Origin: Candidatus Gottesmanbacteria bacterium
GTDB taxonomy: Bacteria; Patescibacteriota; Microgenomatia; JAMCYU01
Reading direction: 5' to 3'
Assembly: GCA_043801155.1 (NCBI GenBank)
Contig: JAZDMI010000020.1
Span: 1 to 62,028, forward strand
Length of the DNA stretch: 62,028 nt
The position numbers and the translations under genes are program-made. The notes beneath the pieces are model-generated. The model was given only the letters and a program-made list of their open reading frames with translations, searched no databases and was not told where the DNA came from. Positions 242 through 49,328 of the stretch are shown here, one piece after another (the first letter of the stretch is position 1; each line of letters opens with the position of its first letter).

Positions 242-727
242 TTAATATGTTCTTAAAGAAACTGTTGTCTGAAAATCAAGCGATGCTTTTTCTTCAGCCA
301 GAGTTGTTGTTAAATTTGCCTGCGTTACTGTAAAATTCATTTTAACAAACGGCGGTGCACCTTGCGGTTTAGTACAATTAAAAGTTAATCCACTAACAAC
401 CACTTTATCATTAGTCAAATAGTTACCAGTAGTAGTAGCACCTTCAGAAGCGATTTTATTACCGACTAAAGAAAATGTCGTTGTATATTTATCAGTATTT
501 AAAATCGTTAATTGATCTGCTCCATTGCAAGTAGCTGATTTAGCGCTTCGAATCATATTCTCCATCATTGAGATCGCATATTCGCCATTTTGCTTAACAT
601 CGCGCATCACATCGCCTTTATTTGCTCCTTTAATGGATGTAAATAAAATAATCATGGCAATACTGCCAACACTGGCCATTAAACCGATCGCGACTAACAT
701 TTCAATTAGACTAAATCCTTTTTTCAT
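242..727 (-). CDS. prepilin-type N-terminal cleavage/methylation domain protein (minor pilin/pseudopilin)
   Basis: N-terminus MKKGFSLIEMLVAIGLM matches the class III signal (G/FxLxE plus a hydrophobic helix). An alternative start lies at 733. Confidence 0.75.
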   Translation of the reverse strand: MKKGFSLIEMLVAIGLMASVGSIAMIILFTSIKGANKGDVMRDVKQNGEYAISMMENMIRSAKSATCNGADQLTILNTDKYTTTFSLVGNKIASEGATTTGNYLTNDKVVVSGLTFNCTKPQGAPPFVKMNFTVTQANLTTTLAEEKASLDFQTTVSLRTY

Positions 728-1197
728 TGCCAATTAGTAAAATATGATTCTAAATTTGATTTGTGATTACCACCAGCATCTGACCAGGAAACTGTAATAG
801 TAGCTTTAATTTTAATTTCTGGGAGTGTAGCAGGTTCGGTAAATAATAAGACTTCTCTTTTAAAGACTGTAGCAGAAGAAGGTCCGCTAATATAATCAGA
901 AGTACCGCACGCATTCGTTGATGGCCATGTAGATGTAGGTAACGTACTTATACAATATCTATTGCCTGGACTTGAGGTAGTAGATAATGGATAAAACGTG
1001 CTCCAATTTTGATCCCGCTGTGATCTTACCCACTCCATTCCTTCAGTGGCGTATTTAGTTGCCAAAGCTTGATTTTTAGAAAATTGCGCATTTTTAACCG
1101 CAGAAGTGACGGCAGTAACTAAACCGCTAATTATTAATATCGAAGCAGCCAAAGCAATCAGGGTTTCAATTAAAAATTGACCCTTATTTTTCTTCAT
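724..1197 (-). CDS. prepilin-type minor pilin/pseudopilin
   Basis: The internal start MKKNKGQFLIETLIALAASILIISG gives a prepilin leader plus a conserved Glu. The longer ORF-track start at 1236 would overlap the upstream gene. Confidence 0.7.
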   Translation of the reverse strand: MKKNKGQFLIETLIALAASILIISGLVTAVTSAVKNAQFSKNQALATKYATEGMEWVRSQRDQNWSTFYPLSTTSSPGNRYCISTLPTSTWPSTNACGTSDYISGPSSATVFKREVLLFTEPATLPEIKIKATITVSWSDAGGNHKSNLESYFTNWQ

Positions 1198-1204
1198 ACG
1201 AATA

Positions 1205-1729
1205 TTATGGGCAAACTGAAACTGCTCCACCGTCAATTATTTCTCCTGATCTTGTTACTTGAATTTTATAGTATTGAGTTCCAGTATTCCCATATCGTAA
1301 ACAAAATGTTCTTGGAGTCCTTACTCCTTGACCAAATATTTTAAACGCTACACGATTAAGATTAAAAGAATCACCGGCAAAATCTCCCGGATTATTAACT
1401 CGTACTGGGGATTTTAGGGATAGTCCACCTACTACCACCGGAAAAGTACCGCCTCCACCATTATCACATTGAGCACGAATTGAGTAGGTAGTTACATTTG
1501 AAAAATATACTTCATATCCGACTAATTTTTGACAGTTTAAAGAGGGTTTTTCAACAGCCATTGCTTTTTCCTGTGCCTGACGAATATGAGTTATTAAATT
1601 TAAGGCAGAGCTTTTTAGAATTTGCCGTTTATTAAAATCAGTGTACTTCGCATAACCGAAACTACTTAAAATAGAGACAATAACTATGGCTATTATCAAT
1701 TCAATAAAAGTAAAACCATTATTTTTCAT
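1205..1729 (-). CDS. prepilin-type minor pilin/pseudopilin (GspH/FimT-like)
   Basis: MKNNGFTFIELIIAIVIVSILSS prepilin motif. Confidence 0.7.
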   Translation of the reverse strand: MKNNGFTFIELIIAIVIVSILSSFGYAKYTDFNKRQILKSSALNLITHIRQAQEKAMAVEKPSLNCQKLVGYEVYFSNVTTYSIRAQCDNGGGGTFPVVVGGLSLKSPVRVNNPGDFAGDSFNLNRVAFKIFGQGVRTPRTFCLRYGNTGTQYYKIQVTRSGEIIDGGAVSVCP

Positions 1730-2230
1730 TTAAGGATTCGCAAGTTGATAGGCTTTACCTGAACTACACGCTGCCCCGATAAACCCTGATGATACAATGT
1801 CTAACCCAGTATCACCAGCAAACTCTATACACGCTTGCACTTTATAGGTTTTGTTAGTACTGTCATAATAATATCGGTAATTAGCAGCAGTATCGGTAGT
1901 ATTTGACGGTAGAACCATATACGTATTTGAGCTACAAGACCATGTATTACCCCAAGAACATGTTGCTGCAGAAGAACAAGTGGTACACCCAATAATTTCA
2001 TAACCGTCTGTGCTCGATGGGTAAGTATTATTATCGGCTCGATACATCTCTAAGGCGTTTTTTACCTGTTGCAGATTAGCTTTTCTTTTGGCATCGCGCG
2101 ATCTTTGTAAATATGCTGGTCCAAAACTAGCTAGCCCGATGGCTGAGACTACACCAATAATTACAATAACCATTAAAAGTTCAATTAATGTAAAACCTTT
2201 ATTTAATTTGCATTTATATATTTTCCACAT
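1730..2230 (-). CDS. type IV pilin-like protein
   Basis: MWKIYKCKLNKGFTLIELLMVIVIIGVVSAIG. The body is Cys-rich, typical of pilin disulfide loops. Confidence 0.75.
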   Translation of the reverse strand: MWKIYKCKLNKGFTLIELLMVIVIIGVVSAIGLASFGPAYLQRSRDAKRKANLQQVKNALEMYRADNNTYPSSTDGYEIIGCTTCSSAATCSWGNTWSCSSNTYMVLPSNTTDTAANYRYYYDSTNKTYKVQACIEFAGDTGLDIVSSGFIGAACSSGKAYQLANP

Positions 2231-2316
2231 AAAAATTTTCCTCCAATTCCAGTATGGCATTTACAAAGAATCATGTCAATCCTTGAGCTAAAAACGGAAT
2301 TTCTTTAAAAGATAGA

Positions 2317-2760
2317 TTAAGGAGTACAACTTGATAAAGATAGTTCAATCATTTTACCAGTGGCTGATCGCCAGCACCAAACATTCCCAGATCCAGATAT
2401 GCTGGGATCTTTTAGGGTCCCATAGATCGAAGCTTCACAGGCTCCAGCAACACAGACATTGCTCCGACTATATATATATGATCCACCTTCAGGTGGTATT
2501 GGATACGTTCTTAGGTCTCCCGATGTAACTAATGTGGTTTCTGGACTTGTAGGGAAAAGAGAATTTAGAACAAAATAGTTCTGTAAACCGGTGGCAATTT
2601 GACTGATATCGCTTTTAACTTTTGAATCTCTCGCCTGATTTATTCTTTTAATGGGATTAATTAAAACTATAATTGCTACAGCAAAAATACCAATCATAGC
2701 GATAACAAAAACTAATTCTATTATTGTAAAACCTAAAACACGAGCAGGATTTTTGACCAT
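2317..2760 (-). CDS. type IV pilin-like protein
   Basis: MVKNPARVLGFTIIELVFVIAMIGIF prepilin motif. Confidence 0.7.
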   Translation of the reverse strand: MVKNPARVLGFTIIELVFVIAMIGIFAVAIIVLINPIKRINQARDSKVKSDISQIATGLQNYFVLNSLFPTSPETTLVTSGDLRTYPIPPEGGSYIYSRSNVCVAGACEASIYGTLKDPSISGSGNVWCWRSATGKMIELSLSSCTP

Positions 2761-3491
2761 ATTAATTCCCCCCAAAATAATGCAATTATTGTTGATCCAA
2801 CTAGGAATGGACCAAAGGGAATATGACTTTTTAATTTTTTTCTGCCTACTAAAATTAGTATTACACCAAATAAAGCGCCTGTCAAGAAGGCTAGATATAA
2901 AGCAATTATAATCTTGGGAAATCCCAGGAATAATCCCATTAAGAGCGTTAATTTAATATCTCCGAAACCCATTCCCCGACCACGTGTTATTAAAAAAAGT
3001 AGTAGGAAAAGACCAGCGGCCAGTATACCTGACACCATGTAATTTAGTATTAAGTATTTAGTATTAAGTACTATGTATAAAACCGAAATAATTATCGCTG
3101 GATAAATAATTTGGTCGGGGATAATTTCATGTTCTAAGTCAATAAAGAAGATAACAATAAGGGCGTAGATAATGAGTAAGTAATAAGTAGTTAGCAGATA
3201 GTCTAAATTACTGAATACTGAATAGTGGATAATGAATAGTGTTAATATCGCAGTTATTAACTCCACCAGCGGATAACGCCAACTAATGGGGGAATGGCAA
3301 TGACGACATCGCCCGCGGAGAAAAAGAAAAGAGAGAAGAGGAATATTATTATACCAGAAAATCTTCTGTTTACACTTTGGACAAAATGATCGGCCAGTAA
3401 TTGACAATCCCAGAGGAAGACGATAAATTAAAACATTAAAAAATGACCCAAAACACAAACCAATAATAAAAAGAAAAATATAAATCATCAT
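2733..3491 (-). CDS. pilD: prepilin peptidase (A24 family)
   Basis: Zn-finger-like CPKC..CRHC in the first cytoplasmic loop, polytopic TM profile, and a GFGDIKL aspartyl motif. Confidence 0.85.
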   Translation of the reverse strand: MMIYIFLFIIGLCFGSFFNVLIYRLPLGLSITGRSFCPKCKQKIFWYNNIPLLSFLFLRGRCRHCHSPISWRYPLVELITAILTLFIIHYSVFSNLDYLLTTYYLLIIYALIVIFFIDLEHEIIPDQIIYPAIIISVLYIVLNTKYLILNYMVSGILAAGLFLLLFLITRGRGMGFGDIKLTLLMGLFLGFPKIIIALYLAFLTGALFGVILILVGRKKLKSHIPFGPFLVGSTIIALFWGELIWSKILLVF

Positions 3492-4745
3492 TTATAAATT
3501 GATAAAAGGGTATCCTCCCCAATAAGAGTACATATAAAAAAGGTTAATAAAAACACTATAAACTATTAATATTTTATGAGAAAAAAGTAGTTTACCATTA
3601 AAGGATTTTAATAATATTAGAAGTAAAAAAGGATAGAAATCCATTGCATAACGATAACCATATTGAATGTATCCGATACCATAATAAGTCATAATTGGTA
3701 TTGCGATTATGACAATAGTTAATATCTCATTAAAACTTTTTTTCAGTCCAGGTAAAAAGAAAGGTAATATAAATAATGGCGAGGTAAAAATTATACTTAA
3801 TCCCCAACCATCATGTCCCAAATAGGGAAAAGTCGCAATGTTAGTATTCGGTTCAACAAATATATCAAAACCTTTAAAAAATAAATAATAAAGATTTGTA
3901 GGTATATGATGAAAAGAAAATAATCCGTATCTTAGAGCCGCCTGGAAATCTGTACTTAAAGAAATTGCAGTGTTGTATCTAAATCCAGTTTCCAAAAAAT
4001 TTCCAAAGCGTACGAAATTGTAAAGAAATAAAATAATTAATATTAAGACTATGGGTGTTAATAATTTGACAAGGTTGATTAATTTCTGATTGATTGATTT
4101 TTTATCTTGAATTAAAGTCAAAATAAAAAAAATTAAGGTAAGAAAAAGATTAATCCTGGTAGCCATCGCCATTGATATATAGAAACCCATAAGAAAATAT
4201 CTTTTATTATTCAGGTATTCATTTATACTTAATAAGATAAAAAGCAGGCCGATAATTTGAGTTTGATAAGCAGAAAAAAATATTAAGGCTACTGAAGCAA
4301 CAAGAGTCCCAAAAACGAAAAATATTGCCAACCACCAAGAATCTGTTTTTTGAAATCGAAATTTTTTTGCAATTTTATAAACAAGTAAAAAACAGATAAT
4401 GGATGAAAACAGGGAGACAAGACTTGATGGATATCTATCTCCTTTCATTAAAACTCCTGGGATCGCCAAGATAGCTGGTAATGGTCCAAAATATACATAG
4501 TATTTTCCTTTATAAAGAGCCAAGTCGGCATTAGGGAAACGGTATGATCCAGGTTGTAAATCAAGTCTTCCTTTGATTAAGCTTTGAGCCAAAAGGGTAA
4601 AATGATTATCAATGGCTCTTGGTGTTGCGGTATTATAGAAATTAAATGCTATCGTAAGATATTTTAAAGAGAAAATTAAACAAAAAATTAAAATAGTCAT
4701 TAAAAATATATATTTTTTTATTAATAATTGCTTCTGTTTATTCAT
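3492..4745 (-). CDS. polytopic membrane protein, GT-C-like glycosyltransferase candidate
   Basis: 417 aa with at least 10 hydrophobic helices and an ArnT/PMT-like overall profile. No sharp motif was seen. Confidence 0.4.
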   Translation of the reverse strand: MNKQKQLLIKKYIFLMTILIFCLIFSLKYLTIAFNFYNTATPRAIDNHFTLLAQSLIKGRLDLQPGSYRFPNADLALYKGKYYVYFGPLPAILAIPGVLMKGDRYPSSLVSLFSSIICFLLVYKIAKKFRFQKTDSWWLAIFFVFGTLVASVALIFFSAYQTQIIGLLFILLSINEYLNNKRYFLMGFYISMAMATRINLFLTLIFFILTLIQDKKSINQKLINLVKLLTPIVLILIILFLYNFVRFGNFLETGFRYNTAISLSTDFQAALRYGLFSFHHIPTNLYYLFFKGFDIFVEPNTNIATFPYLGHDGWGLSIIFTSPLFILPFFLPGLKKSFNEILTIVIIAIPIMTYYGIGYIQYGYRYAMDFYPFLLLILLKSFNGKLLFSHKILIVYSVFINLFYMYSYWGGYPFINL

Positions 4746-6367: not shown

Positions 6368-7999
6368 ATGAAAAAACTTTGGTTACTCACAATCATCATC
6401 TTTCTAATTTATTTTCATCCGTGGAATAAAGATTTTCCTCTTCCAGTCTATAATACTAAGGAGTCTTTTAACAAAACCTTCAGCAACTATTTTTATTATA
6501 GTTCTGAAATCAAACGCGGTAATCTCCCGTTTTGGAATCCTCTAGTCGCAAATGGCAGTACATTTTTAGCACAAACTGATTACTCCCTATTTAATCCTTT
6601 AACCCTGATCGTTTTAAGGTTTTTACCTTTCCCTTTAAATTTGAAGATTTTATATCTGATTAGTTTTTTAATAGCATCCACCGGTATGTTTCTTTTCTTA
6701 AAATCCCTCAAGCAGAAAGGAAATGCTTTTGCCGGTACTTGCATTTTCGTCTTTTTTGGTCCATTCTTGTCGATGGTAAGCGATCTGAATGTCTTACAAA
6801 CTCTAAGTTTAGTCCCTTGGATCTTTTTATTAGTCAATAAATCATTAGCTCTTGGAGGTCTCGTTATAGCTCTACAGGTTCTCTCTGGTCCATTTGAACT
6901 AACATTATTAACGCTTTTTTTTGTCCTAATCTATTATCGTTCCATAAGGGTTATTTGGACGATGATTGCCGGCTTATGTTTATCTTCTATCAAGCTTATA
7001 ACCTTTTTTGATATTTCTAGTTTAACCATTGCCCCTTTGCAGTATTTTTATGTAGCTTCTACAAACATAAATAGTATTCGATTCTTTTATCCAAGTATTG
7101 TTACAATTATTTCCGTTTTCTTTATAAGAAAAAATGTCATTTATTTATTTTTAGTTATTTTTTGTTTATTAATGGCGTTTCCGGCAATATCACCTCTCTA
7201 TATTCTGTACTTGACCCCGCCATTTTTTTGGATTAATCGCCCAGAAATATTTTTAAGTTTTGCCGGGTTTTTCCTTGGCGCTATAGTATCAATAAACTGG
7301 CGTCGATTATTTATAATCATCTTGTTTATCGAGCTTATCGTTTTTAACTTTCTCAATTTACCTAAGGAAACAGCTGGTCAAATTATGGTAAGTCTTGAAA
7401 AGAAATATCCGTTCATCAATAAAATACAGAAAGAAAAGGCTAAAATTTGGTTTAATGATAGTGTCTTAAGTACACAGATCGAGCCCTTAGAACCAAATAA
7501 TAATTTACTATGGGGTATAACCTCATTAAATAGCTACGAACCAGGAACCAAAAGACATCAAACATATCTATCATTACTTAATCCTAGTGCTAACAGACTT
7601 CTAAGTATACAATCAGTCAAATACCAAGTTAATCCGTTTAAAAGTATAAATAACCCCTTGCCTGAAGTGTATACCGCTAATAAAATTACGTTAGTCAAAA
7701 CTACTGAACAATTGATAGATCTTTTACTTGATAAGAAGTTTAGTCCAGAAAAAGAATCGTTAGTTGAAGAAAAACTTAGATCTACTAAAATTACTATTGT
7801 CACCCAAAGTTATTCCAAACTCTTTAAAAATGTTGTCCCGGTTAATCTTGATCAGCAAGGTATGGTCGGAGATAGAAAATCTTCATTAGATTTGCAGAGT
7901 TTAAAAATTGGGATAACCATTACTTTAATTTCGCTTATTTTTCTAATTCTTTTAAATTTCTCTCGCTGGCAGCTTTTTTTTCACCATAAATCTGGTTAA
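6368..7999 (+). CDS. large polytopic membrane protein (YfhO/GT-C-like)
   Basis: 543 aa with many TM helices and a soluble C-terminal region. Family assignment is tentative. Confidence 0.4.
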   Translation: MKKLWLLTIIIFLIYFHPWNKDFPLPVYNTKESFNKTFSNYFYYSSEIKRGNLPFWNPLVANGSTFLAQTDYSLFNPLTLIVLRFLPFPLNLKILYLISFLIASTGMFLFLKSLKQKGNAFAGTCIFVFFGPFLSMVSDLNVLQTLSLVPWIFLLVNKSLALGGLVIALQVLSGPFELTLLTLFFVLIYYRSIRVIWTMIAGLCLSSIKLITFFDISSLTIAPLQYFYVASTNINSIRFFYPSIVTIISVFFIRKNVIYLFLVIFCLLMAFPAISPLYILYLTPPFFWINRPEIFLSFAGFFLGAIVSINWRRLFIIILFIELIVFNFLNLPKETAGQIMVSLEKKYPFINKIQKEKAKIWFNDSVLSTQIEPLEPNNNLLWGITSLNSYEPGTKRHQTYLSLLNPSANRLLSIQSVKYQVNPFKSINNPLPEVYTANKITLVKTTEQLIDLLLDKKFSPEKESLVEEKLRSTKITIVTQSYSKLFKNVVPVNLDQQGMVGDRKSSLDLQSLKIGITITLISLIFLILLNFSRWQLFFHHKSG

Positions 8000-22856: not shown

Positions 22857-23786
22857 CTATTTATTACCGCTGTGAAAGGTGTCATGGATGTCTTTTAATC
22901 GTTTGTTAGTTACATGGGTATAAATAACGGTGGTACTGATACTTGAATGACCTAACATCTCCTGAACGCTGCGGATGTCAGCTCCGGCAATAAGAAGATC
23001 GGTGGCAAAACTATGTCTTAGAGTGTGCGGTGTTGCCTGGATTGGTAAACGTGCTTTGATAACATATTTTTCCACCAAACGTTCCACTGATCTGGCAGTC
23101 AACCGTAAAGTTTCACCGTCTTTCCCGGGATCTAATGTTTTACCGCTGTAGCGGATAAACAATGGTTTGTAGAGGTCCTGGCGAGCTGCTAGATATTTTT
23201 TAATCCAGCCAGCCGACCCGGATGACAAATAAACAACTCTGGATTTTCTACCTTTTCCAATAACACCAAATTCACGACGGTCTAAATTTATTTGATCTTT
23301 ATTCAACGAAGTCAGTTCTGATACCCGTAAACCAGTTGAGAATAATGTTTCCAGTATGGCTTTATCACGAAGCCCTGGCGGTGTACTTATATTAGGCTGA
23401 TTAAGTAATCTTTCAATTTGCTCATTATCGAGAAATTTTATTTGCACTGATTGGTCTTTTTTTGGCAATTCAATTCTTTTTGGCGCTAAGCTCTTTATTT
23501 CTTGCCTTTCCAAATAGCCTAAAAAGGCTCGCAGAATTATTACATGATAAACTTGGGTTCTTTTTGATAAAGGTAAATTATGAACGATTAAGCGGGCTAA
23601 ATAAATCCGGTATTTTTGGACCATATCCAGTGATAAATCAGTAATGGTTATTTTAGGATAGTTAGTCTCAAGCCATCTCTGGAATCGGGCCAGATATAAG
23701 CGATAATTTCTTATTGTCAGTTCCGAACAGCTTCGTTCAATTTCTAAATATTCTAAATATTTATCTATAGCTTCAGTAAAATTCAT
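22857..23786 (-). CDS. xerC: tyrosine recombinase, XerC/XerD type
   Basis: N-terminal SAM-like domain, HTLRHSFATDLL, and the C-terminal catalytic block GHSSISTTVIYTHV. Length is 309 aa. Confidence 0.85.
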   Translation of the reverse strand: MNFTEAIDKYLEYLEIERSCSELTIRNYRLYLARFQRWLETNYPKITITDLSLDMVQKYRIYLARLIVHNLPLSKRTQVYHVIILRAFLGYLERQEIKSLAPKRIELPKKDQSVQIKFLDNEQIERLLNQPNISTPPGLRDKAILETLFSTGLRVSELTSLNKDQINLDRREFGVIGKGRKSRVVYLSSGSAGWIKKYLAARQDLYKPLFIRYSGKTLDPGKDGETLRLTARSVERLVEKYVIKARLPIQATPHTLRHSFATDLLIAGADIRSVQEMLGHSSISTTVIYTHVTNKRLKDIHDTFHSGNK

Positions 23787-24972
23787 ATTATATTATAAAT
23801 AGGGGAGTCTTCCAGGAATAGGCATATAAAGATCAGGTATTAGGCAATAGGGATTAGGCCTTATATAAACATGCATAATTATTTAATTTAAATTAATTAC
23901 ATTAAATAGTGCAAATATAATATTAACAGATTTGACCTCTTCTCCGGAACCAGCCTTGCCTGACGTCGTAAAAGCTTGGTTATACGACATCATAGATAAT
24001 TTATCCTCCGTTGTCAAGTATCAATAAATAACAAGTTTTTACCTGGGTTCCGTAAGAACACGATAAATGTTTATATTCCCGGGAAGAAGATGAAGGTCTT
24101 CTCCAAGACCACGATCATGATTAATGAAACATTCATAATCGTTCTTTACCGAATATAAGATAACATTAGTGTCTTATCCAATATACTTAGGTTTCTAGAA
24201 GCTTACACGACCTTGTGTATTTAGATTGTTAATATGCTCTAAATATATAATTTCGTGCGTAGATAAGTATGTCATTAATAAGGAAATATTCAATAGCTAG
24301 AGCATAATGGCAACTTAAACTTGTATAATTGTGGCCAATTATTATCGTTATACTGTAATTAATTATATATCCTGGTTATAGAGAGGTTTCGGTTTTTTTA
24401 TGGTCTAGTACTAAGAATGAATTTAGAGCATAACAATGCCATAAATTAATATTTTTGAGGCTAACGTAAAATATAATGACATATGGAAATTATACGAATA
24501 TAGAGCGTATTAGCGTGATAAGCAACTAGTTTCGAGGTCACAAATATAACGCCGATATAATTATCCCCAGCACCCGAAGCATGTAATTGCTGACTAAACT
24601 ATGTTTTTTAATATCAAGCTTATTTAGCTTGTCAGGACAAGATAAATTATCGTTTTTGTGGCTAATATATTTGGAAAATAATAATGGTATGAAGATGCAG
24701 AGCATAATAACGAGCTATATTAATATTTTTATGCGTAAATTTGGTGTTCATTTCATCGCAAGGTCAGAAGAGTGCGCTTGCGGTGAACGTAGAAACCGTG
24801 AAAACAATTCCCGAATCCCGTGAAAAGAGTAGTAAGAAGTTATTCCGCGTGAGTTATCCACAACGCGTCTAAATTACTATAGGTTAGTATATTCAAATGA
24901 CTTAACTATATCAAACTATATCTTGCCACTTCCCTCTTCCCCACCACCAAGTCCAATTTTTTTGATATGATC
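23787..24972. other. ORF-free AT-rich region with DnaA-box-like words and an iteron-like motif (candidate origin, or dif/terminus locus, or RNA gene)
   Basis: No credible ORF. A perfect TTATCCACA lies at 24854-24862, with several one-mismatch boxes. The AGAGCATAA-type word occurs five times. Confidence 0.3.
24233..24707. repeat. cluster of five AGAGC(A/G)TA(A/T) words
   Basis: Copies at 24233-24243 (minus), 24298-24307, 24422-24433, 24501-24510 and 24698-24707. Confidence 0.7.
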
Positions 24973-25788
24973 TTATCCCCATATTGTTGTTATTAATACC
25001 AGGATAAAAACGACAACCGATACTGAAATAAATTCAGTAACTGTTCTATGGAAAAGCCTTTCGACCAGATATTGCTGAATCATACCAACCAGGCTATAAA
25101 AAATAGTCGTTAGGAAAAGAGATTCGATGATTGTCTGAATCGGCCAGAATGAAAAGATTATGGCCAATTCGCCGCCGATAAGCGATATTATTAAACAATA
25201 AATGAACAATTGCCAAGAAATTTTTGGTTCTAGCTTCATTGCCCATAAACATTGAAGGCTTAATAAACTATAGATAATAAAAATTAAAATAAAATTTTCT
25301 GCAAAAGGAAGATGAAGTGAAAAAATAATATTTAAGAGTAAAAATAAAGTAAATAAAGTGAGAAATAGACCGACTGAATGAGCTGCTCTTAATAACTGAA
25401 TCGTTCTCTCAGCCGCCACATTATAGATATTTTCAATAAGGAGAATTGCATAAATTCCCACAGCAAAAATAATGTCTATTGGTAGTCTAGTCAACCAACG
25501 AACTGGTAACAAAAAATAAAATAACGGCATGGCAATAACGTACGTAATTGGTAAGATAAATAATGTTAGCCATTCAATACCATTAAGGTCTTCCCATAAA
25601 CCCCAAACAAAAAGCACGTATGTTAAAACAGCTAATCCAATAATAAGATGGTAGCGAAAATTCGGGCCTAGAACTTGAATTAATAAGAGACCGCCTGTTA
25701 AAACACCTACAATTAAACCAAATTTTTCTCTTTTGGTTAAAAATAATTTATGGCTTAGATGGGTATAAAATTTTTTAATCCTTTTTAT
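24973..25788 (-). CDS. polytopic membrane protein, unknown function
   Basis: Multi-TM profile. The start at MIKRIKKF avoids a long overlap with ruvC. Confidence 0.5.
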   Translation of the reverse strand: MKRIKKFYTHLSHKLFLTKREKFGLIVGVLTGGLLLIQVLGPNFRYHLIIGLAVLTYVLFVWGLWEDLNGIEWLTLFILPITYVIAMPLFYFLLPVRWLTRLPIDIIFAVGIYAILLIENIYNVAAERTIQLLRAAHSVGLFLTLFTLFLLLNIIFSLHLPFAENFILIFIIYSLLSLQCLWAMKLEPKISWQLFIYCLIISLIGGELAIIFSFWPIQTIIESLFLTTIFYSLVGMIQQYLVERLFHRTVTEFISVSVVVFILVLITTIWG

Positions 25789-26293
25789 CATGGATTGAAA
25801 AACAGATGGCCAGGGCAAGAGCATCAGCGGCATCATCTGGTCGAGGGAGTTTATAAAGCCCTAAGGTTCTTCTGACAAATTGTTGGATTTGATGTTTAGA
25901 AGCATGGCCGTCGCCTACCAACTTCTTTTTAACCCAAAGTCCCTGGTATTCACAGGTGGTGATTTTCTGCTCGGCGGCTGTTACCATTACTACTCCCCTT
26001 GCCTGACCAACAGTCATGGCTGTTTTGGCATTTCTTCCAAAAAATAATTGTTCAATTATGATTGTCTGTGGCTTATATAGGCGAATTATTTTTCGTAAAT
26101 TTTGCCGAAGCATTAATAGTCTCTCCCCCATTATCATACCTACTGGTGTTTTAATAGTTCCATGGGCTACATAAACTAATCCGTCATTTTTAACCTTTGT
26201 GTTTCGACAATTCATTTTTATCACACCAAAGCCGGTAGTGGCTGTTCCGGGATCAATACCGAGAATAGTTTGCATGTTTGTTTGAATTTTCAT
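25775..26293 (-). CDS. ruvC: Holliday junction resolvase RuvC
   Basis: ILGIDPGTATTGFGVI, and a C-terminal DAADALALAI. Confidence 0.9.
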   Translation of the reverse strand: MKIQTNMQTILGIDPGTATTGFGVIKMNCRNTKVKNDGLVYVAHGTIKTPVGMIMGERLLMLRQNLRKIIRLYKPQTIIIEQLFFGRNAKTAMTVGQARGVVMVTAAEQKITTCEYQGLWVKKKLVGDGHASKHQIQQFVRRTLGLYKLPRPDDAADALALAICFSIHDKKD

Positions 26294-27048
26294 TTTTGTG
26301 TAATATTCCTTAATATCTCATCCGGTATATCAAAATTAGCAAACACATGTTGAACATTGTCATTATCCTCTAATTTATCGATTAAGTTTAACACTTTTTG
26401 CGCTGTTTCTGGTGAGGTAATAGAAATTGTTGAAGTCGGTCGTAAAGTTAGCTCTGATTCAATGATCGCGATACCCTGTTTTTCAAGAGTTTCTCTTGTC
26501 TTATGAAGATCTTCATGTTTGGTATAAACAATTATTTCGTCTCCAGCTTCTTCTAAATCTTGTGCTCCTGCTTCGATAACCTTATCCATAATTTCATCGC
26601 TTGTTTTTCCATGTTTTGATATAGTAATTGTACCGATATTTTGAAAAAGATAAGCAGTTGCTCCGGGGCCGGCTAAAGTTCCACCAAAGCTTTCCAAAAT
26701 ATTTTTAATTTCTTGTACTGTTCTCTGGCGGTTATCGGTAGCTGTTTGAACTAAAAACGCAATTCCTCCCGGCCCGAAGCCTTCATAATTTATTTCCACC
26801 AATTCTCCGGCCTCTGATCCTTTAGCTCTTTCAATTGCCCGTTGGATATTTTCTTTGGGCATATTAGCTGACCGGGCTTTTTCTATAGCTAACCGAAGTT
26901 TAAAATTGATATTAGGATCACTAATTTCCCCTCCAGCACGAACAGCTAATGTAATTGCAAATCCAAGTTTAGTAAACGCTTGACCTCTTTTTTGATCGGC
27001 TACGCCTTTTTGGTGTTTAATCGTACTCCACTTCGAATGTCCTGACAT
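26290..27048 (-). CDS. yebC: YebC/PmpR-family protein
   Basis: MSGHSKWSTIKHQKG...KRGQAFTKL. Confidence 0.9.
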   Translation of the reverse strand: MSGHSKWSTIKHQKGVADQKRGQAFTKLGFAITLAVRAGGEISDPNINFKLRLAIEKARSANMPKENIQRAIERAKGSEAGELVEINYEGFGPGGIAFLVQTATDNRQRTVQEIKNILESFGGTLAGPGATAYLFQNIGTITISKHGKTSDEIMDKVIEAGAQDLEEAGDEIIVYTKHEDLHKTRETLEKQGIAIIESELTLRPTSTISITSPETAQKVLNLIDKLEDNDNVQHVFANFDIPDEILRNITQK

Positions 27049-28916: not shown

Positions 28917-29124
28917 GTTCTATCACTCTTCCCTTTTATTACTCTTCTTTTTTCTTTTTGCTTATAATTTCCACCTTTGGTAAAACAAAAGGTTTCTGAA
29001 AAGAAAGAACTCGAGACTTTTTTTCCAGTTCTTCTTTCTTTCTTTTCCTTTTTTCTCCAGAATAAAAACCACCAAAGCTTCCCATATATCTATATTATAA
29101 CAAATCAAAATGGATTGATCTAGT

Positions 29125-34499: not shown

Positions 34500-34620
34500 A
34501 GGGAAATATTACATCATTCTTGTTCTTTTGTCACCTTGATACTTCGATTATTTCAGTATCAAGCCTGATTATTTCGCAGGCTTGACATTATCTGTTAAAC
34601 TGTTCAGTATTAATTTATAC

Positions 34621-34703
34621 CGCCCCTCAAGATGTCGAGCTTACAGCGAGACCGAATTGAGGAAAGGTAAAAGGAGCATTCGCCGAAGGCGAAGCGGACT
34701 TAT
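34621..34703 (+). repeat. structured intergenic element, copy A
   Basis: CCTCAA-GAT-GTCGAGCT-TAC-AGCGAGAC-CGAA-TTGAGG, then an A-rich linker, a TTCGCC-GAA-GGCGAA hairpin, and GGACTTAT. Confidence 0.75.
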
Positions 34704-34709
34704 AAACAT

Positions 34710-35150
34710 ATGACAGCCACCACGCATTCATTAGTTGGAGTTTCTTTAGGTCGATTAATCCCTAATCCAATTGTTGCTTTAACAGTAGTTTTTTTGTCCA
34801 ATTTTATTCTTGATGCGGTTCCCCATTGGGATACCGGTACCGGGTGGCATAACCGGCCAAAAAAAATTACTTTTATAATGTCTGCTGTTGATGTTAGCCT
34901 TGGTTTAGTATTGGCTTGGGTATTTTTTCACTCTAAACTTAATCCTCTTTATCTTTTTAGTCTTGTTTTTGCATCAACCCTGGCTGATTGGACAGAAGCA
35001 CCATATATTTTCTTAAATTGGAATTTTCCGCCATTTAACTGGTTTTATAAAATCCAATCAAAATACCATGCCCGCAATGGTAGTCTTTGGGGAATTGTAA
35101 CCCAGCTAGTTATTGTTATTCCACTTGTATTAGTAGCCTACTATTTGTGA
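34710..35150 (+). CDS. small membrane protein, unknown function
   Basis: 146 aa with four hydrophobic helices. Confidence 0.4.
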   Translation: MTATTHSLVGVSLGRLIPNPIVALTVVFLSNFILDAVPHWDTGTGWHNRPKKITFIMSAVDVSLGLVLAWVFFHSKLNPLYLFSLVFASTLADWTEAPYIFLNWNFPPFNWFYKIQSKYHARNGSLWGIVTQLVIVIPLVLVAYYL

Positions 35151-35161
35151 ATCTTTTATTT

Positions 35162-35282
35162 CGCGCCTCAGAATGTCAACTTTACAAGTTGACCTGAATG
35201 AGGCAAGAAAAAAGGAGCACCTGCAGGAGCGAACTTATTCGAACATCGTGAGAAAAAGGAGCACCTGCAGGAGCGGACTTAT
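35162..35282 (+). repeat. structured intergenic element, copy B (tail module duplicated)
   Basis: CCTCA-GAAT-GTCAACTT-TAC-AAGTTGAC-CTGAA-TGAGG, then two copies of AAAAAGGAGCACCTGCAGGAGCG(A/G)ACTTAT with a 44-nt period. The end overlaps the efp stop codon. Confidence 0.8.
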
Positions 35283-35842
35283 TTATTGATCCTCTGAACA
35301 TATTCTCCGGTACGAGTATCGATTAACACCATATCGCCAATTTCAACAAACAAAGGAACTCTAACTTTAACTTTATTATCCAAAACTGCATCCTTGAATA
35401 TATTAGTTGCCGAATTACCACGATAACCAGGTTCAGTTTCTGCAATTGTAAATTCCATTTTAATCGGTAATTCAATTGTTAATGGTTCATCTTGATAAAA
35501 AACTACTTTAATATTCATTCCTTCTTTAAGATACGAGGCTTGATCTCCTATTTTATCGTTAGATAATTCAAACTGCTCAAAGGTATTTGGATCCATAAAA
35601 ACGAAGTTATTACCGTTTTTATAGAGATATTGTGATTCTTTCTTATCTAAATTTGCTTCCTGAACTTTGGCTCCTGATATAAAAACTTTTTCAACAATTG
35701 AACCACTGCGAAGGTTTTTGATTTTTGTTTTTATTGTCGCTGTGCCGCGGCCGAGCTTAACAAACTCATAATTTAAAACCTGGAAGAGATTATTATCTTC
35801 AGTAAAATAAGCTCCGGCTCGTAAATTTGTAACTGAAATCAT
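35279..35842 (-). CDS. efp: elongation factor P
   Basis: 187 aa with an EF-P-like N-terminus and a KLGRGTATIKTK loop. Confidence 0.93.
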   Translation of the reverse strand: MISVTNLRAGAYFTEDNNLFQVLNYEFVKLGRGTATIKTKIKNLRSGSIVEKVFISGAKVQEANLDKKESQYLYKNGNNFVFMDPNTFEQFELSNDKIGDQASYLKEGMNIKVVFYQDEPLTIELPIKMEFTIAETEPGYRGNSATNIFKDAVLDNKVKVRVPLFVEIGDMVLIDTRTGEYVQRINK

Positions 35843-37365: not shown

Positions 37366-37450
37366 GCCGAGGTGCTGAAATGGCAGACAGGCTAGTCTCA
37401 AAAACTAGTGAGGATAAAACCTCGTGAGGGTCCGACTCCCTCTCTCGGCA
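37366..37450 (+). tRNA. tRNA-Leu(CAA), class II with a long variable arm; CCA not fully encoded
   Basis: Hand fold: acceptor GCCGAGG/TCTCGGC, D stem CTG/CAG, anticodon stem CTAGT/ACTAG with loop CTCAAAA, variable arm GAGG/CCTC, and T stem GAGGG/CCCTC. The T loop reads TCCGACT. Confidence 0.85.
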
Positions 37451-39159: not shown

Positions 39160-40524
39160 TTATTCTTTTTCCCGTTTCTTTTCGACGCCGAAGAATTTTA
39201 TGCGGTCGCCTTTAAAAAGCATGTCAATTTCACCTAATGGTCCATTTCGATGTTTGGCGATTAATAATTTAGTGAGGATACTATCGCCCCATTTTTCTGG
39301 CTCCTCCTGTCGATAAAGAAACATAACCACATCTGCGTCTTGTTCAATGGCACCAGACTCACGAAGATCAGCCAATTGTGGAATCTTACTACCGCGTGAC
39401 TCAACCGCCCGTGACAATTGTGAAACGGATAGAACAGGGATTTTAAGTTCACGAGCCAAATTTTTAAGAGAGGCTGAAACCATTGAGACTTCTTGTACCC
39501 GGTTATCGTATCGACGACCGCAATCAACTAATTGTAGATAGTCAACAATTAATAACTGGACTCCGTGTTGGACTTGTAAACGGCGAGCTTTAGTCCTAAT
39601 TTCCAAAATATTGGCTCCGGGGGTATCATCAATATATAATGGCGCTTCGGCCAATTCACCCATAGCCGTTGACAACTTAGTAAAATCTTCGTCAGCTAAT
39701 TTCCCTGTTTTAAGGCGCCACGCATCAACGTCAGCCTGCGATACTAACAATCTGTCCACCAGCTCTTCCTTGCTCATTTCTAAAGAAAAAATCCCGACCG
39801 GGATTTTTTGTTGAACTGATGCATTTTGAGCCATGTTTAAAACTAAAGCCGTTTTTCCTTGACCGGGCCGGGCAGCTAAAATTAATAGATTTGAAGGCTG
39901 CATACCAGCTAATCGATTATCTAGATCAATAAAGCCGGTCGGTACTCCCCGCAGCCCTCCGGCGCGCTTATGTAACTCATCAAGCCGGTCAAAGGATTCA
40001 GCTAAAGCGTCTTTTATAGGGATAAAGTCTCGCCGAGCATGGATTTGCGCAATGGAAAAGATTTCTGACTCGGCCACATCTAAGATTCCTTTAACGTCTC
40101 CCTTGCCGGAAGTGGCTTCTGCGGAGATTTTGGCTGCTGTAGAAATAAGCGTTCGACGAGTAAAATTATCTTGGATAATCCGGCCATAATTTTCGGCATT
40201 AGCACTGGTTGGAACAGCATTAAGAATATCAGTTAAATATGAAGCACCGCCGATTTTTTCGAAGTCGCCGCTTTTTTTGAGTTCAGCTGTAATAGTAACA
40301 ATATCAATTGGTTCATGTTTTTCAAAAAGATAAATCATCGCCTGAAATATTTTGCCATTACTTTCCTTATAAAAATGATTCGGGCGGAGGAATTCAACAA
40401 TATCAACAATAGCATCCTTATCAATAAGGATTGCCCCTAAAACAGAAAGCTCGGCCTGGTCATCATGTGGAGGAACTTTGAGATCTGTCATATTTGATGA
40501 AAAGGAATACTTGGACTCACTCAA
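39160..40524 (-). CDS. dnaB: replicative DNA helicase
   Basis: PHDDQAELSVLGAIL, Walker A ARPGQGKTA, and 454 aa length. No intein. Confidence 0.95.
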   Translation of the reverse strand: MSESKYSFSSNMTDLKVPPHDDQAELSVLGAILIDKDAIVDIVEFLRPNHFYKESNGKIFQAMIYLFEKHEPIDIVTITAELKKSGDFEKIGGASYLTDILNAVPTSANAENYGRIIQDNFTRRTLISTAAKISAEATSGKGDVKGILDVAESEIFSIAQIHARRDFIPIKDALAESFDRLDELHKRAGGLRGVPTGFIDLDNRLAGMQPSNLLILAARPGQGKTALVLNMAQNASVQQKIPVGIFSLEMSKEELVDRLLVSQADVDAWRLKTGKLADEDFTKLSTAMGELAEAPLYIDDTPGANILEIRTKARRLQVQHGVQLLIVDYLQLVDCGRRYDNRVQEVSMVSASLKNLARELKIPVLSVSQLSRAVESRGSKIPQLADLRESGAIEQDADVVMFLYRQEEPEKWGDSILTKLLIAKHRNGPLGEIDMLFKGDRIKFFGVEKKREKE

Positions 40525-41217: not shown

Positions 41218-41652
41218 ATGAATCTGGGGAAGGAAACGATTTTTGCTGCTATTGTTGGATTCGCCATCGGGATAGTAGCTGCTTGGGCCATACTGGGCTT
41301 ACCTCAATTTTTACCTAAAAAAGAAACGACCATTACGACAACCAATGAATTCAAGCAAACTCAACCATCGCCAACCCCACAAATTTCACTACTGACACTA
41401 ACCGCTCCGGAAAATGATATTATTGTTCAAACACCACGAGTTGATATTTCTGGTAAAACTTCCATCGGAAGTACTGTGGTTATTAATGGACCGTTAGCCG
41501 ATGAGGTAATCGAGGCTACCGGAGATGGTAGCTTTGTTGTAAGTCTTGATCTCGAGGAAGGTTCAAACGACATTCAGGTTACTGCATATGGGGTAAATGG
41601 ATCTGAAAAAACGGAAACAAGAATGGTCAACTATACTAAAGAAGAATTTTAA
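41218..41652 (+). CDS. membrane-anchored protein with an Ig-like domain
   Basis: N-terminal TM helix, and VDISGKTSIGSTVVINGP...DGSFVVSLDL is typical of bacterial Ig-like folds. Confidence 0.4.
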   Translation: MNLGKETIFAAIVGFAIGIVAAWAILGLPQFLPKKETTITTTNEFKQTQPSPTPQISLLTLTAPENDIIVQTPRVDISGKTSIGSTVVINGPLADEVIEATGDGSFVVSLDLEEGSNDIQVTAYGVNGSEKTETRMVNYTKEEF

Positions 41653-41659
41653 ATTGGCG

Positions 41660-42487
41660 ATGCAAATGAAAAAAATAATTTTTTTTATCATTACTTTTAT
41701 TTTATATACAACAATTTATTCGTCAACTGTCATGGCGGTTCCGGCTACTGATTCCGCCCAACAAGCAGAGAATCGCCAAGAACAGATAGAACAACTTAAA
41801 GACCGGGTAGCCACTAGAGTTGCCGAAATGAGACAACTAATGCGGCGAGCTTGGTCAGGTAAAATTAAAAGTATCTCCGAAAGTAATATTATCTTTTATA
41901 CAAAACTGGGAGATAAAACTGTAATTACCGATGACCAAACTATTTTTATCGAAGTCGGAGCTGGTGGTCGAAAGAAAATTAATTTTAATAACTTAAAAGT
42001 AGATCAACAAATTACGGTCTTTGGACTTTATGATGAAGAAAAAGGCCAATTAACAGCCAAGGTTATTATTGTTCGGGTACTACCGATGAATATCAACGGA
42101 AAAGTTCTTGAAGTAAGTTCAACAAATGGTACGCTAACAGTCCAGACTCCTAATCAAAGTTCTTATATTGTTGATATTGAAACAGCAACTAAGATTCGGG
42201 TTTGGGATAAAGAAAAAGGGATCCAACAATCCGGGCTATCAAAGATAACCGTTGGTGATCGGGTTCATATAAACGGTACAGTTCCATCAAAAGTAACAGA
42301 AACTAATCAACTTACAGCTATTCGCATTCTGGTTTTGCCAGGTAAAGCATTAGGAATTGTTGGTTCACCAAAGCCACTCGTTAATACTTCGCCGTCTCCA
42401 TCAGCATCAGTCAGTCCGTCAACAAAGGCTTCACCAGTATCCTCTCCGAGCGGATCCCCTGTCTCCTCTCCAAAATCTACCCCGTAA
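41660..42487 (+). CDS. secreted protein with a Ser/Pro-rich tail
   Basis: Signal-like MQMKKIIFFIITFILYTTIYSSTVMA, and a C-terminal SPSPSASVSPSTKASPVSSPSGSP. Confidence 0.45.
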   Translation: MQMKKIIFFIITFILYTTIYSSTVMAVPATDSAQQAENRQEQIEQLKDRVATRVAEMRQLMRRAWSGKIKSISESNIIFYTKLGDKTVITDDQTIFIEVGAGGRKKINFNNLKVDQQITVFGLYDEEKGQLTAKVIIVRVLPMNINGKVLEVSSTNGTLTVQTPNQSSYIVDIETATKIRVWDKEKGIQQSGLSKITVGDRVHINGTVPSKVTETNQLTAIRILVLPGKALGIVGSPKPLVNTSPSPSASVSPSTKASPVSSPSGSPVSSPKSTP

Positions 42488-42520: not shown

Positions 42521-42593
42521 GATATAACATTCTTCGAATGTTTTTCCTTGCCTCAATTCACCTTTGATGTAATCAAAGGATCTTGAGGGGCAG
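42521..42593 (-). repeat. structured intergenic element, copy D (opposite orientation)
   Basis: CCTCAA (42551-42556)/TTGAGG (42583-42588), inner stem CCTTTGAT-GTA-ATCAAAGG, and a CATTC-TTC-GAATG hairpin followed by TTTTT. Confidence 0.75.
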
Positions 42594-42608
42594 AATAAAA
42601 ATTATCAT

Positions 42609-42761
42609 GTTAAGTTTAGTAAATAGAATCCATCATTACCAGCCAGCTTAAAGTTGGTTGGTTTTGACGTGGATTAAACTTAACAGTAAATACTAAAAAC
42701 TAAATACAAATAAGTAGGACCAGCCAAACTTTAGGCAAAAAGCTTAAGAGGCTGGTTTTTT
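42609..42761 (+). promoter_or_regulatory. structured leader with mutually exclusive hairpins ending in a terminator, upstream of the radical SAM gene
   Basis: A 76-nt three-tier hairpin spans 42609-42684. The terminator ACCAGCC...GGCTGGT plus TTTTTT spans 42719-42761. Segment 42650-42661 is complementary to 42720-42732. Confidence 0.45.
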
Positions 42762-42794
42762 AGTGGGAAAAATTAATGAAAGGAGGTGAAAAAT

Positions 42795-43916
42795 ATGAGT
42801 ATTAACGTAGAACAACGTTATGAAACAGCAAGAGACGTAAGTCGAAATAATAAGGTTCCAGCAATAATTCTGGAAACTAGCGGTGAATGCCCGCTGGCTT
42901 GTAAAAGATGTTACATGATAACTGGAGATCGCACAGCTTCCTTATCTGGCAAACCCCAAATGATTGACAGTCGAAAAGCCGTAGAAATTTTTGACCTGAT
43001 AAAGGCACAGAATAGCGGCCAGGAAGCGCAATCAGTTGATTTGGTTGGCGGTGAACCGATGTTACCAAGAGTTTGGCAGGAAGTTAAAAAGACTATTGAA
43101 ATAGCATCTGATCGCGGAATTGTACCATGGCTTTTTACTAACGGAATGTTTATGACGCCGGAAGATGCCAAATGGCTTCTAGATAAAAAAACATTTATTA
43201 CTATGAAGCTTAATATCGGTAACCCTAATGATCCCAAACAAATGGAATTACAGGCCAAAATGGTCGGCAGAAATATTAACGCAGCTAAACAGTTGGCGCG
43301 CGGATTATATATTGCTCTTGACGCCGGATTAAAGAATCCACAACTTAGCGTTGAGAACTTAATTCGGGCTGAAAATGCCCCCTTGGTTGGTGAATTCTAC
43401 GAGCTGGGGTTGAAATTAGGATTTAAACCGGATGTTGAAATTACGGGCAACGGACAAAAAGATAATTGGGGATTCTTTGCTGAAGCTCCAAGTATTGAAC
43501 AAATCCGCTCGATAATGGGACAAATAAAAAGTGTAAGAGAAAAACAAGGACTAGAACCAATCACTTTTTTAATGCCTCACATTACCGGCAGTTGTTCATT
43601 CTTTGATACGGCTTTATATTTCCGGCCGAACGGAGATATCCAACCGTGTAGTGGCAACCCAACGGTTCTGGCCAATGTTAATCAAGAAAATGCCATTGGG
43701 AATGCAATAGAAAGCCCAGTTATCCAAGTACGAAGGAATTTGACTCAAAGTCAACTTTCCGGACCATGTGGTAATTGTGGAACCTGGAGTCTGTGTCGAG
43801 GCGGATGCCGGGCAACTGTTGAATCATTTGGTAATCCTTATGGTTCTTATCCTTTATGCGGAATTCAGAAAGAATTCAATAACGCTAAAGATATAGCTTT
43901 GTCTAATAAGAAATAA
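42795..43916 (+). CDS. radical SAM enzyme with a C-terminal SPASM-like Cys cluster
   Basis: CPLACKRCY (CX3CX2C), and a C-terminal CGNCGTWSLCRGGCRA. The SD AGGAGG lies 8 nt before the ATG at 42795. Confidence 0.8.
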   Translation: MSINVEQRYETARDVSRNNKVPAIILETSGECPLACKRCYMITGDRTASLSGKPQMIDSRKAVEIFDLIKAQNSGQEAQSVDLVGGEPMLPRVWQEVKKTIEIASDRGIVPWLFTNGMFMTPEDAKWLLDKKTFITMKLNIGNPNDPKQMELQAKMVGRNINAAKQLARGLYIALDAGLKNPQLSVENLIRAENAPLVGEFYELGLKLGFKPDVEITGNGQKDNWGFFAEAPSIEQIRSIMGQIKSVREKQGLEPITFLMPHITGSCSFFDTALYFRPNGDIQPCSGNPTVLANVNQENAIGNAIESPVIQVRRNLTQSQLSGPCGNCGTWSLCRGGCRATVESFGNPYGSYPLCGIQKEFNNAKDIALSNKK

Positions 43917-49168: not shown

Positions 49169-49218
49169 AACAGAGAATATTTTTTCAAATAAACCTGAGA
49201 TAATACTTAGAATTATTC

Positions 49219-49328
49219 CGCGCCTCAGAACGTCAATTTCACAAATTGACCTGCCTGCCCGCCGGCGGCATTGCCGCAGGCAAATGCAGGCGGGAATGAG
49301 GCAAGGAAAAAGGAAAACTTGGACTTAT
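49219..49328 (+). repeat. structured intergenic element, copy C, carrying a nested GC-rich palindrome
   Basis: CCTCA-GAAC-GTCAATTT-CAC-AAATTGAC-CTG, then a 41-nt insert at 49254-49294, then AATGAGG and a tail ending GGACTTAT. The end overlaps the ctpA stop codon. Confidence 0.8.

Follow-up and report, generated by a model that had tools for sequence, protein, structure and literature searches.

The 62-kb window, that is, the whole stretch of DNA that was analysed (62,028 nucleotides), contains four copies of one element family, three of them on the + strand (A, B and C) and one on the - strand (D). The genes that flank copies of this family are functionally unrelated (efp, and genes for a C-terminal processing protease, HtrA, a DNA ligase, VanW, a cytidylyltransferase and a CsoR-like repressor). 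The element folds into three nested helices, P1, P2 and P3. Read in the orientation common to all copies, it consists of a TTAT flank, P1, a small GC/AA loop, P2, an internal loop, P3, an A run and a tail ending in GGACTTAT, so that a copy begins directly after one TTAT and ends with another. Read in the gene direction, the same parts are ATAA, a tail of ~13 nt (GTCCAAGTATTCC), sometimes with a small GC hairpin, a T run, an imperfect palindrome of ~55 nt (P1-P2-internal loop-P3-triloop) and the terminus CGCGAAATAA. The simple form is ~71-85 nt long. The copies, their parts and their covariance-model scores are as follows.

34619-34703, + strand: copy A (81.6 bits), after the flank TTAT at 34615-34618
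34618-34621 and 34666-34669, + strand: P1 of copy A
34625-34630 and 34657-34662, + strand: P2 of copy A (CCTCAA and TTGAGG)
34634-34641 and 34645-34652, + strand: P3 of copy A, with loop TAC and a tandem GA mismatch
34679-34693, + strand: tail hairpin of copy A (TTCGCC-GAA-GGCGAA)
34696-34703, + strand: end of copy A (GGACTTAT)
35160-35282, + strand: copy B as a whole, a complete unit and a second, tail-only unit
35160-35238, + strand: complete unit of copy B (90.4 bits), after the flank TTAT at 35156-35159
35166-35170 and 35199-35203, + strand: CCTCA and TGAGG of copy B
35175-35182 and 35186-35193, + strand: P3 of copy B, loop TAC
35235-35238, + strand: terminal TTAT of the first tail of copy B, which contains CCTGCAGG
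35239-35282, + strand: second unit of copy B, tail only, core deleted
42528-42598, - strand: copy D (75.1 bits), after ATAA at 42524-42527 on the + strand, which is the gene direction
42528-42540, read on the + strand: tail hairpin of copy D (CATTC-TTC-GAATG), followed by a T run
42551-42556 and 42583-42588, read on the + strand: P2 of copy D (CCTCAA and TTGAGG)
42561-42568 and 42572-42579, read on the + strand: P3 of copy D, with the terminal ATAA at 42595-42598
49217-49328, + strand: copy C (72.6 bits), after the flank TTAT at 49213-49216
49223-49227 and 49297-49301, + strand: CCTCA and TGAGG of copy C
49232-49239 and 49243-49250, + strand: P3 of copy C, loop CAC
49251-49293, + strand: extra GC-rich hairpin of copy C (~43 nt), 3' of P3
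49321-49328, + strand: end of the standard tail of copy C (GGACTTAT)

An earlier note on this DNA had described four copies, all of which are present, and its inner stems, loops, GA/GA mismatch in copy A and CAAGGAAAAA run are exactly as it gave them. Its two-stem layout is right for the outer CCTCA stem and the inner stem but lacked a third, outermost covarying helix, P1. Copy D is indeed present, but its end had been set 5 nt short and is revised to 42528-42598; the distance of 40 nt between an ORF stop and the start of this copy stands, but the ORF is 41597-42487 and not 41660-42487. The second GC hairpin, which had been taken for a family feature, is restricted to A, B, D and the copies of one related locus (L016), and the standard tail (AAAAAAGGAAYACTTGGACTTAT) is hairpin-free in C and in most copies outside the window. 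Copy A is located between a -10 box (TATTAA) and the ATG of ORF 34710-35150. In the gene direction, the second unit of copy B reads ATAA followed by GTCCGCTCCTGCAGGTGCTCCTTTTT-CTCACGATGTTCG-AATAA. Short GC-rich palindromes are nested in the copies at differing positions (49251-49293; CCTGCAGG at 35220-35227 and 35262-35269; 34679-34693) in a genome of 36% GC, and they look like secondary insertions or palindrome growth.

The strict family pattern matched three times in the window, against 0.00 matches in 100 shuffles; copy C has a longer gap than this pattern allows and was recovered by a regular expression and by the covariance model. The regular expression CCTCA...TGAGG returned the four copies and one unrelated coding match, and the covariance model (R1), run over the 62 kb, found no fifth copy in the window. 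A weak match of the model at 28949-29015 was rejected as a copy and corresponds to a small lysine-rich ORF (MGSFGGFYSGEKRKRKKEELEKK..., ~28940-29084, - strand). This ORF lies right after a TATAAT box and upstream of a gene with a LytR_C domain, and its counterparts are 45-48-codon genes called in L012, L021 and L023 (loci outside the window are cited by L numbers).

EF-P homologues place the window in the Microgenomates. Eleven further copies were found outside it, in related Microgenomates genomes and in one sediment metagenome. In syntenic loci of species with ~80-86% EF-P identity, R1 detected one copy in L018 and two in L016, and no copy in L012, L021, L023, L024 and L042-L045. The metagenome scan gave eight true copies (L003-L005 and L007-L011), all from sediment sample Ga0315281. 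In L003, three tRNA-Ala genes are encoded within 1.6 kb (737-2346), the last of which ends ~12 nt before the element, the flank TTAT being counted. In L008, the stretch 1669-1735, inside a DNA-ligase-like ORF, attracted contigs, in each of four metagenome runs, at 30-70 times the depth of its surroundings, and is either another kind of repeat or a lysine-rich stretch of low complexity.

Species whose orthologous proteins share 66-82% identity have element cores, and even certain P3 variants, that agree at ~95% (protein identity is 66-73% for the window and the Ga0315281 organisms, with cores again at ~95%). This requires either recent horizontal spread, with the element moving among co-resident species, or a real constraint on sequence that goes beyond what the helix model suggests. 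Copy density is modest, with 4 copies per 62 kb and ~230 kb examined in all. Two pattern matches in reference genomes (Chlorobiaceae and Anaerolineaceae contigs) were without the inner hairpin and were discarded as chance matches. Neither the core pattern, run over viral, plasmid and phage collections, nor a BLAST search of plasmids and phages with the element produced a match, and the 17 viral matches of the 17-nt tail are about the number estimated for chance. A search of the literature for repeats or miniature elements of CPR bacteria returned nothing relevant.

P1, the outermost helix, has 4 bp and covaries between copies (UUUC/GAAA in B, UUCC/GGAA in C, UACC/GGUA in A and UUCG/CGAA in L016), with one U-G pair in copy D (UUCU/GGAA). 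P2 is GCCUCA/UGAGGC. The internal loop between P2 and P3 is conserved and purine-rich (GAAY / YUGAA or GAU / YGAA), and P3 is a variable 8-bp helix closed by a UAC or CAC triloop. In an alignment of 15 distinct copies, namely the 4 of the window and the 11 outside it, standard pairing is kept in 93% of cells and 11 of the 19 pairs show two-sided change, a value reached by none of 500 shuffles (7.7 +/- 1.1); when the partners are slid by 1-3 columns as a control, pairing falls to 32-50%. RNAalifold independently predicts P1-P3, and folding of single sequences yields the same structure for either strand, at z-scores between -3 and -6. These data support the view, argued in the earlier note from four copies, that the shape is under selection while the sequence turns over.

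The earlier note had left open whether this structure acts as a 3' RNA element or as a DNA hairpin. Both strands fold equally well, and one-sided (G-U) change is found in 1 cell versus 51 two-sided changes; many pairs switch from G-C to C-G or from A-U to U-A, for which no wobble-pair route is possible. A DNA hairpin therefore fits the near-absence of G-U intermediates and the equal folding of the strands better than an RNA does. In a palindrome, a switch of template from one arm to the other can also restore complementarity, for which selection on RNA is not needed. It is on the antisense strand of the genes that the purine-rich loop and the tandem G-A pairs read best, whereas the orientation of the copies tracks the sense strand.

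No known RNA was recognised. Rfam 15, searched over the whole window at the gathering threshold, returned only a tRNA (37366-37450), and a permissive search of 34560-35330 (E up to 10) gave unrelated noise matches only. By-eye comparison showed that the cores of the hammerhead, the K-turn, the sarcin-ricin motif and group II domain V do not fit the element fold. The description of an intrinsic terminator followed by a double hairpin applies to A, B and D only, in which the tail hairpin precedes a U run, and the terminator scan flags only that of A; it does not extend to the standard tail, which has no hairpin, nor to the core, whose stem is preceded by the U run and followed by the A run in either orientation. 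Promoter and terminator scans gave match counts at the level of shuffles. An outward promoter formed by a TTGACA in the P3 arm and the terminal ATAA was considered and rejected: TTGACA occurs in some type-1 copies only, and the spacing is short.

ATAA is present at both junctions, in one polarity, in all 15 copies, with ATAG and ATGA as minor variants, and the flanks are unrelated right up to TTAT. When L010 was compared with contigs of other loci from sediment and wetland metagenome runs, similarity was confined to ~1161-1237, which in the gene direction reads ATAA|GTCC...CGCGAAATAA|. The two ends (GTCCAAG... and ...CGCGAAATAA) are not inverted repeats, and the foot of the hairpin is separated from the left boundary by ~15-22 nt and from the right one by 9-10 nt. 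Filled and empty sites are compatible with a 4-bp duplication of ATAA or with an element that itself ends in ATAA.

This ATAA explains the overlap with stop codons. As the earlier note had stated, efp stops at the TTA of GGACTTAT in the second unit of copy B (35279-35281), and ctpA at that of copy C (49325-49327). The overlap arises because the insertion site and the terminus are both ATAA, and no 3'-end function is needed to account for it; with TAA inside the left ATAA, the frame stays closed whether a copy inserts at a stop codon or supplies an ATAA of its own. Of 65 genes in the window, 17 end in ATAA; many genes have a TATAAT box 5-9 nt before the ATG, and most spacers are below 60 nt in length. 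The main ATAA-bearing sites in spacers are thus promoters and stop codons, and insertion at the ATAA of a TAA stop or at a -10 box regenerates the signal with little harm, which is why copies are found at gene boundaries; their non-random placement relative to genes, claimed in the earlier note, can be traced to ATAA in this way. The genes with a TATAAT-like box include those starting at 27048, 31170, 54359, 56035, 59470 and 60713, and these boxes suggest that leaderless or near-leaderless mRNAs may be widespread in this genome; clear AGGAGG sites are present in a minority of the window genes.

Occupancy of orthologous sites varies between relatives. Site A is empty in L012, L016 and L018; the L018 promoter of this gene, which encodes a small membrane protein, is ...CAGTATTAATTTAT followed by GACC, with the ATG almost at the -10 box, whereas in the window 85 nt of element and AAACAT separate TTTAT from the ATG. 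Among ~10 relatives examined, L018 alone shares with the window a filled efp site, and the downstream neighbours of these two sites differ; the spacing between efp and the convergent gene is 0-14 nt in L042, L043 and L012, and the efp site of L016 has no element. Site D is filled in the window and in L016 (4168-4237), with no element in L018 and L012. In the ctpA-htrA spacer of L018, two tails, separated by GCTAGCGC, are found in place of the full core of the window. At strain level, a related strain in metagenome run X3 has 20 unrelated bases in place of the L008 element. Both L016 copies share P2 CUUCAA/UUGAAG and P1 UUCG/CGAA, variants absent from every other genome, which fits within-genome spread or homogenisation.

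Decayed forms are also present in the window:

24840-24857, - strand: relic consisting of ATAA, CTCA and CGCGGAATAA, which keeps the 5' end of P2 and the 3' terminus of the element
40502-40518, - strand: solo tail without core, TGA followed by GTCCAAGTATTCCTT, then TTCATCAAAT and ATG

The relic directly adjoins a DnaA box without mismatches (TTATCCACA, + strand, 24854-24862). The locus L007, syntenic with 24985-26853 of the window, has a full element at this very site, inserted after the DnaA box TGTGGATAA. The relic belongs to a noncoding stretch of ~1.2 kb (23787-24972) on which the neighbouring genes converge; it contains DnaA-box-like 9-mers at 24561, 24657, 24854 (perfect) and 24973, shares conserved blocks with L007 (e.g. 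TTTTCACGGGATTCGG) and may be an origin or a terminus/dif region. The solo tail fills the spacer between the stop of a gene for a metallo-beta-lactamase-fold protein and the start of dnaB. The tail AAGTCCAAGTATTCCTT without a core was found there, at 2657-2673 of L008 and at 174-190 and 204-220 of L018, and extra tail-only units stand in tandem in B, L003 and L004, with tandem tails in L018 as well. We infer that tail-only units are copies that lost their unstable palindrome, combined with re-insertion at the element's own ATAA end; the converse could also be considered, namely that the core is a second module that targets the tail. In L018, the spacer between the beta-lactamase-fold gene and dnaB contains, at 7029-7045, the tail-like TAAGTAATATTTGGACTTATG in inverted sense with 3 mismatches, whose TTAT runs into the ATG; its likeness to the tail could be due to chance.

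In all 9-10 copies located between co-directional genes, the direction from tail to core is that of transcription. The informative copies are C, D, L004, L005, L008, L009, L011, L018 and the first of L016, probably with L007 and L010; A, B and the second copy of L016 are uninformative, with divergent or convergent genes or a tRNA beside them. The supply of targets (88 ATAA versus 77 TTAT in co-directional spacers) was rejected as a cause of this orientation, and a single direction of replication found no support, since D has the opposite orientation to B and C on either side of it and GC skew simply follows the gene strand. The transcription-linked orientation is the best argument for some transcript-level constraint, so a role at the RNA level may still exist.

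No transposase, RAYT or HUH gene was detected among 40 of the ~66 window ORFs (Pfam), in the gene tables of the syntenic loci or among the ten ORFs beside the metagenome copies. The sole recombinase in the annotated window ORFs is a XerC/D-like tyrosine recombinase (22857-23786), which adjoins the 23787-24972 noncoding stretch and is 11 kb from the nearest full copy. A pilin-like gene cluster (242-4745, - strand) encodes proteins with N-terminal methylation motifs and a prepilin peptidase, and one of its pilins has a sub-threshold match to the domain of the DNA-uptake-sequence receptor ComP. Just past copy D starts a 14-codon ORF (MLSLVNRIHHYQPA, 42607-42651, + strand), which is resembled by a small ORF of L018 (MSGLSLYCTHKRLPA); a conserved CCAGCC...GGCUGG stem with a U run follows at ~42700-42760, upstream of a radical SAM/SPASM gene (42786-43916). 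The ORF could encode a precursor or a leader peptide with an attenuator.

Taken together, the element is best explained as a mobile DNA repeat, small and non-autonomous, whose range is limited to a narrow group within the Microgenomates (CPR), a reading to which we give a probability of roughly 60%. The variable occupancy of orthologous sites and the decayed relics favour a mobile repeat over a conserved 3' RNA element, so that, of the two options in the earlier note, the DNA hairpin is preferred, as part of such a repeat. As the junctions show, the element sits beside 5'-ATAA-3' in fixed polarity; it would carry its own terminal ATAA. Its fold would be kept through recognition of the folded single DNA strand by a mobilising enzyme acting in trans, possibly, by analogy, a transposase of the Y1/HUH class that acts on single strands, as in IS200/IS605 or REP systems; correction of one arm of a palindrome by the other may help to keep the arms complementary. 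Repeated insertion at the element's own ATAA end would generate the tandem units, and decay appears to proceed by loss of the palindrome, with tail-only units and short relics left behind, as seen in the window. Transcripts crossing a copy should contain a stable stem-loop, and in A, B and D the tail hairpin and U run could act as a terminator, which is regarded as a side effect.

Several known systems resemble this mobile repeat in part. REP/REPIN elements, which are mobilised by RAYT (TnpA-REP) transposases (PMC3333891, PMC8266576), are, like the element, extragenic just past stops, imperfect palindromes with compensatory change and non-autonomous, and are probably recognised as a folded single strand. 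However, the element lacks GTAG and has TTTC/GAAA feet with covarying variants, its palindrome is ~55 nt long versus 20-40 nt in REPs, and it occurs as single copies and not as inverted doublets, with a larger, three-tiered hairpin, a conserved internal loop and a non-palindromic tail. Furthermore, its copy number is low. The gene for RAYT, a Y1 HUH protein, is typically flanked by REPs; no RAYT gene was found among the annotated ORFs of the window, of the syntenic loci and beside the metagenome copies.

With IS200/IS605 and their miniature derivatives (palindrome-associated transposable elements), the element shares the absence of terminal inverted repeats and strand-specific insertion beside a fixed tetranucleotide. 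IS608 is cleaved 19 nt 5' and 10 nt 3' of its subterminal hairpins, at sites read by a guide sequence at the hairpin foot (PMC3597680); the corresponding distances in the element are 15-22 nt on the left and 9-10 nt on the right. The unlike ends, the tetranucleotide-specific strand placement and these distances recall, by geometry only, IS200/IS605 and the related REP/RAYT systems, and the covariation of P1 could, by analogy, reflect pairing of a guide with the ends. The element differs from IS200/IS605 in having one large hairpin, seemingly serving both ends, instead of two subterminal palindromes, and the same ATAA at both junctions (a 4-bp duplication being possible); no TnpA/TnpB partner is present among the ORFs annotated, and orientation follows transcription and not one replication direction.

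Other families of small repeats are more distant. Mycobacterial MIRUs are intergenic in operons, oriented in the gene sense, overlap the upstream stop and form partial tandem units, all as in the element; they are not hairpins and are thought to carry short coupling ORFs, whereas the element is a hairpin without a convincing small ORF. Correia, ERIC and RUP elements are likewise small repeats whose transcripts fold into long hairpins, and they can provide neighbouring genes with terminators or promoters. These have terminal inverted repeats, symmetric target duplications and either orientation, in contrast to the unlike ends of the element and its fixed polarity versus the non-palindromic ATAA. 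A classical DDE-type miniature inverted-repeat element is not supported either, as the element is asymmetric, its tail having no counterpart, and the polarity of ATAA is constant.

It is rather unlikely that the element is a cis-acting RNA module of mRNAs, read in the gene direction and copied around the genome because it is useful, for example in protecting against 3' exonucleases, in marking processing or termination, or in keeping stop and start close for re-initiation. Such a module would account for the orientation with transcription in all 9-10 informative copies, for next start codons often 5-20 nt past the hairpin, for tail-only units directly before ATGs, for the tail hairpins with U runs of A, B and D (that of A being flagged by the terminator scan), for strong sequence conservation between species and for covarying helices. 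It is difficult to reconcile with sister species whose same junctions have no element and spacers of 0-14 nt, with the tolerance of relics, with the scarcity of G-U pairs, with a core that is a terminator in neither direction (U run 5' and A run 3' of the stem) and with copy A, which lies in a 5' leader in the opposite sense.

A quite unlikely variant of the mobile reading is that the element represents an undescribed, minimal single-hairpin, strand-specific module, whose ATAA cleavage sites would be read through the P1 guide and which would also serve as a portable gene-boundary cassette, with P3 specificity subfamilies kept across species. If so, it would be selfish DNA and at the same time a boundary element that functions as RNA or DNA; it would be kept in the sense of transcription because of this cassette role, in which it would supply very compact, largely leaderless CPR genomes with a stop codon, a stem-loop and an AT-rich start region.

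Very unlikely is a folded-DNA site without transposition of its own, used for recombination or binding by a host protein, either as the substrate of a tyrosine recombinase (of the integron attC or Xer-site type) or as a site for a nucleoid protein. The asymmetric, conserved internal loop and variable stems recall the recognition of attC by shape, attC sites also conserve shape more than sequence and have an internal unpaired spacer and variable apical structure, copy C has a variable extra hairpin, and a XerC/D-like recombinase is encoded at 22857-23786. Many attC sites contain a stop codon, as does the element. Against this, the R'' RYYYAAC and R' GTTRRRY boxes are absent, the copies are scattered and form no cassette arrays, the flanks are housekeeping genes in conserved synteny, no integron integrase is adjacent, and the recombinase is of ordinary XerC/D size and domain content and adjoins no copy. 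Finally, an independently transcribed small RNA gene at each copy, in the common orientation, antisense and pairing with the stop-codon region, is highly improbable: the GAAU/CUGAA loop, the tandem G-A pairs (of one subfamily) and the U-G pair of D read best on the common-orientation strand and the tail is complementary to mRNA 3' ends by construction, but no upstream promoter is conserved and promoter-like matches are at chance level, L011 has the opposite wobble (C-A on that strand), and the pattern of presence, absence and relics argues against it.

In summary, the element matches no Rfam family and is probably a new example of a familiar type of selfish element, and not clearly a regulatory RNA. 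Small repeats of this type have hardly been described in CPR bacteria, whose tiny genomes are usually thought to be poor in mobile DNA. The family provides a clean marker of strain-level variation in Microgenomates and shows how an element can live harmlessly at stop codons and -10 boxes by regenerating ATAA. It also cautions against taking strong covariation of helices in a repeat family, on its own, as a sign of a regulatory RNA. Should a partner enzyme come to light, the mechanism behind the single-hairpin layout and behind the link of orientation with transcription would merit study.
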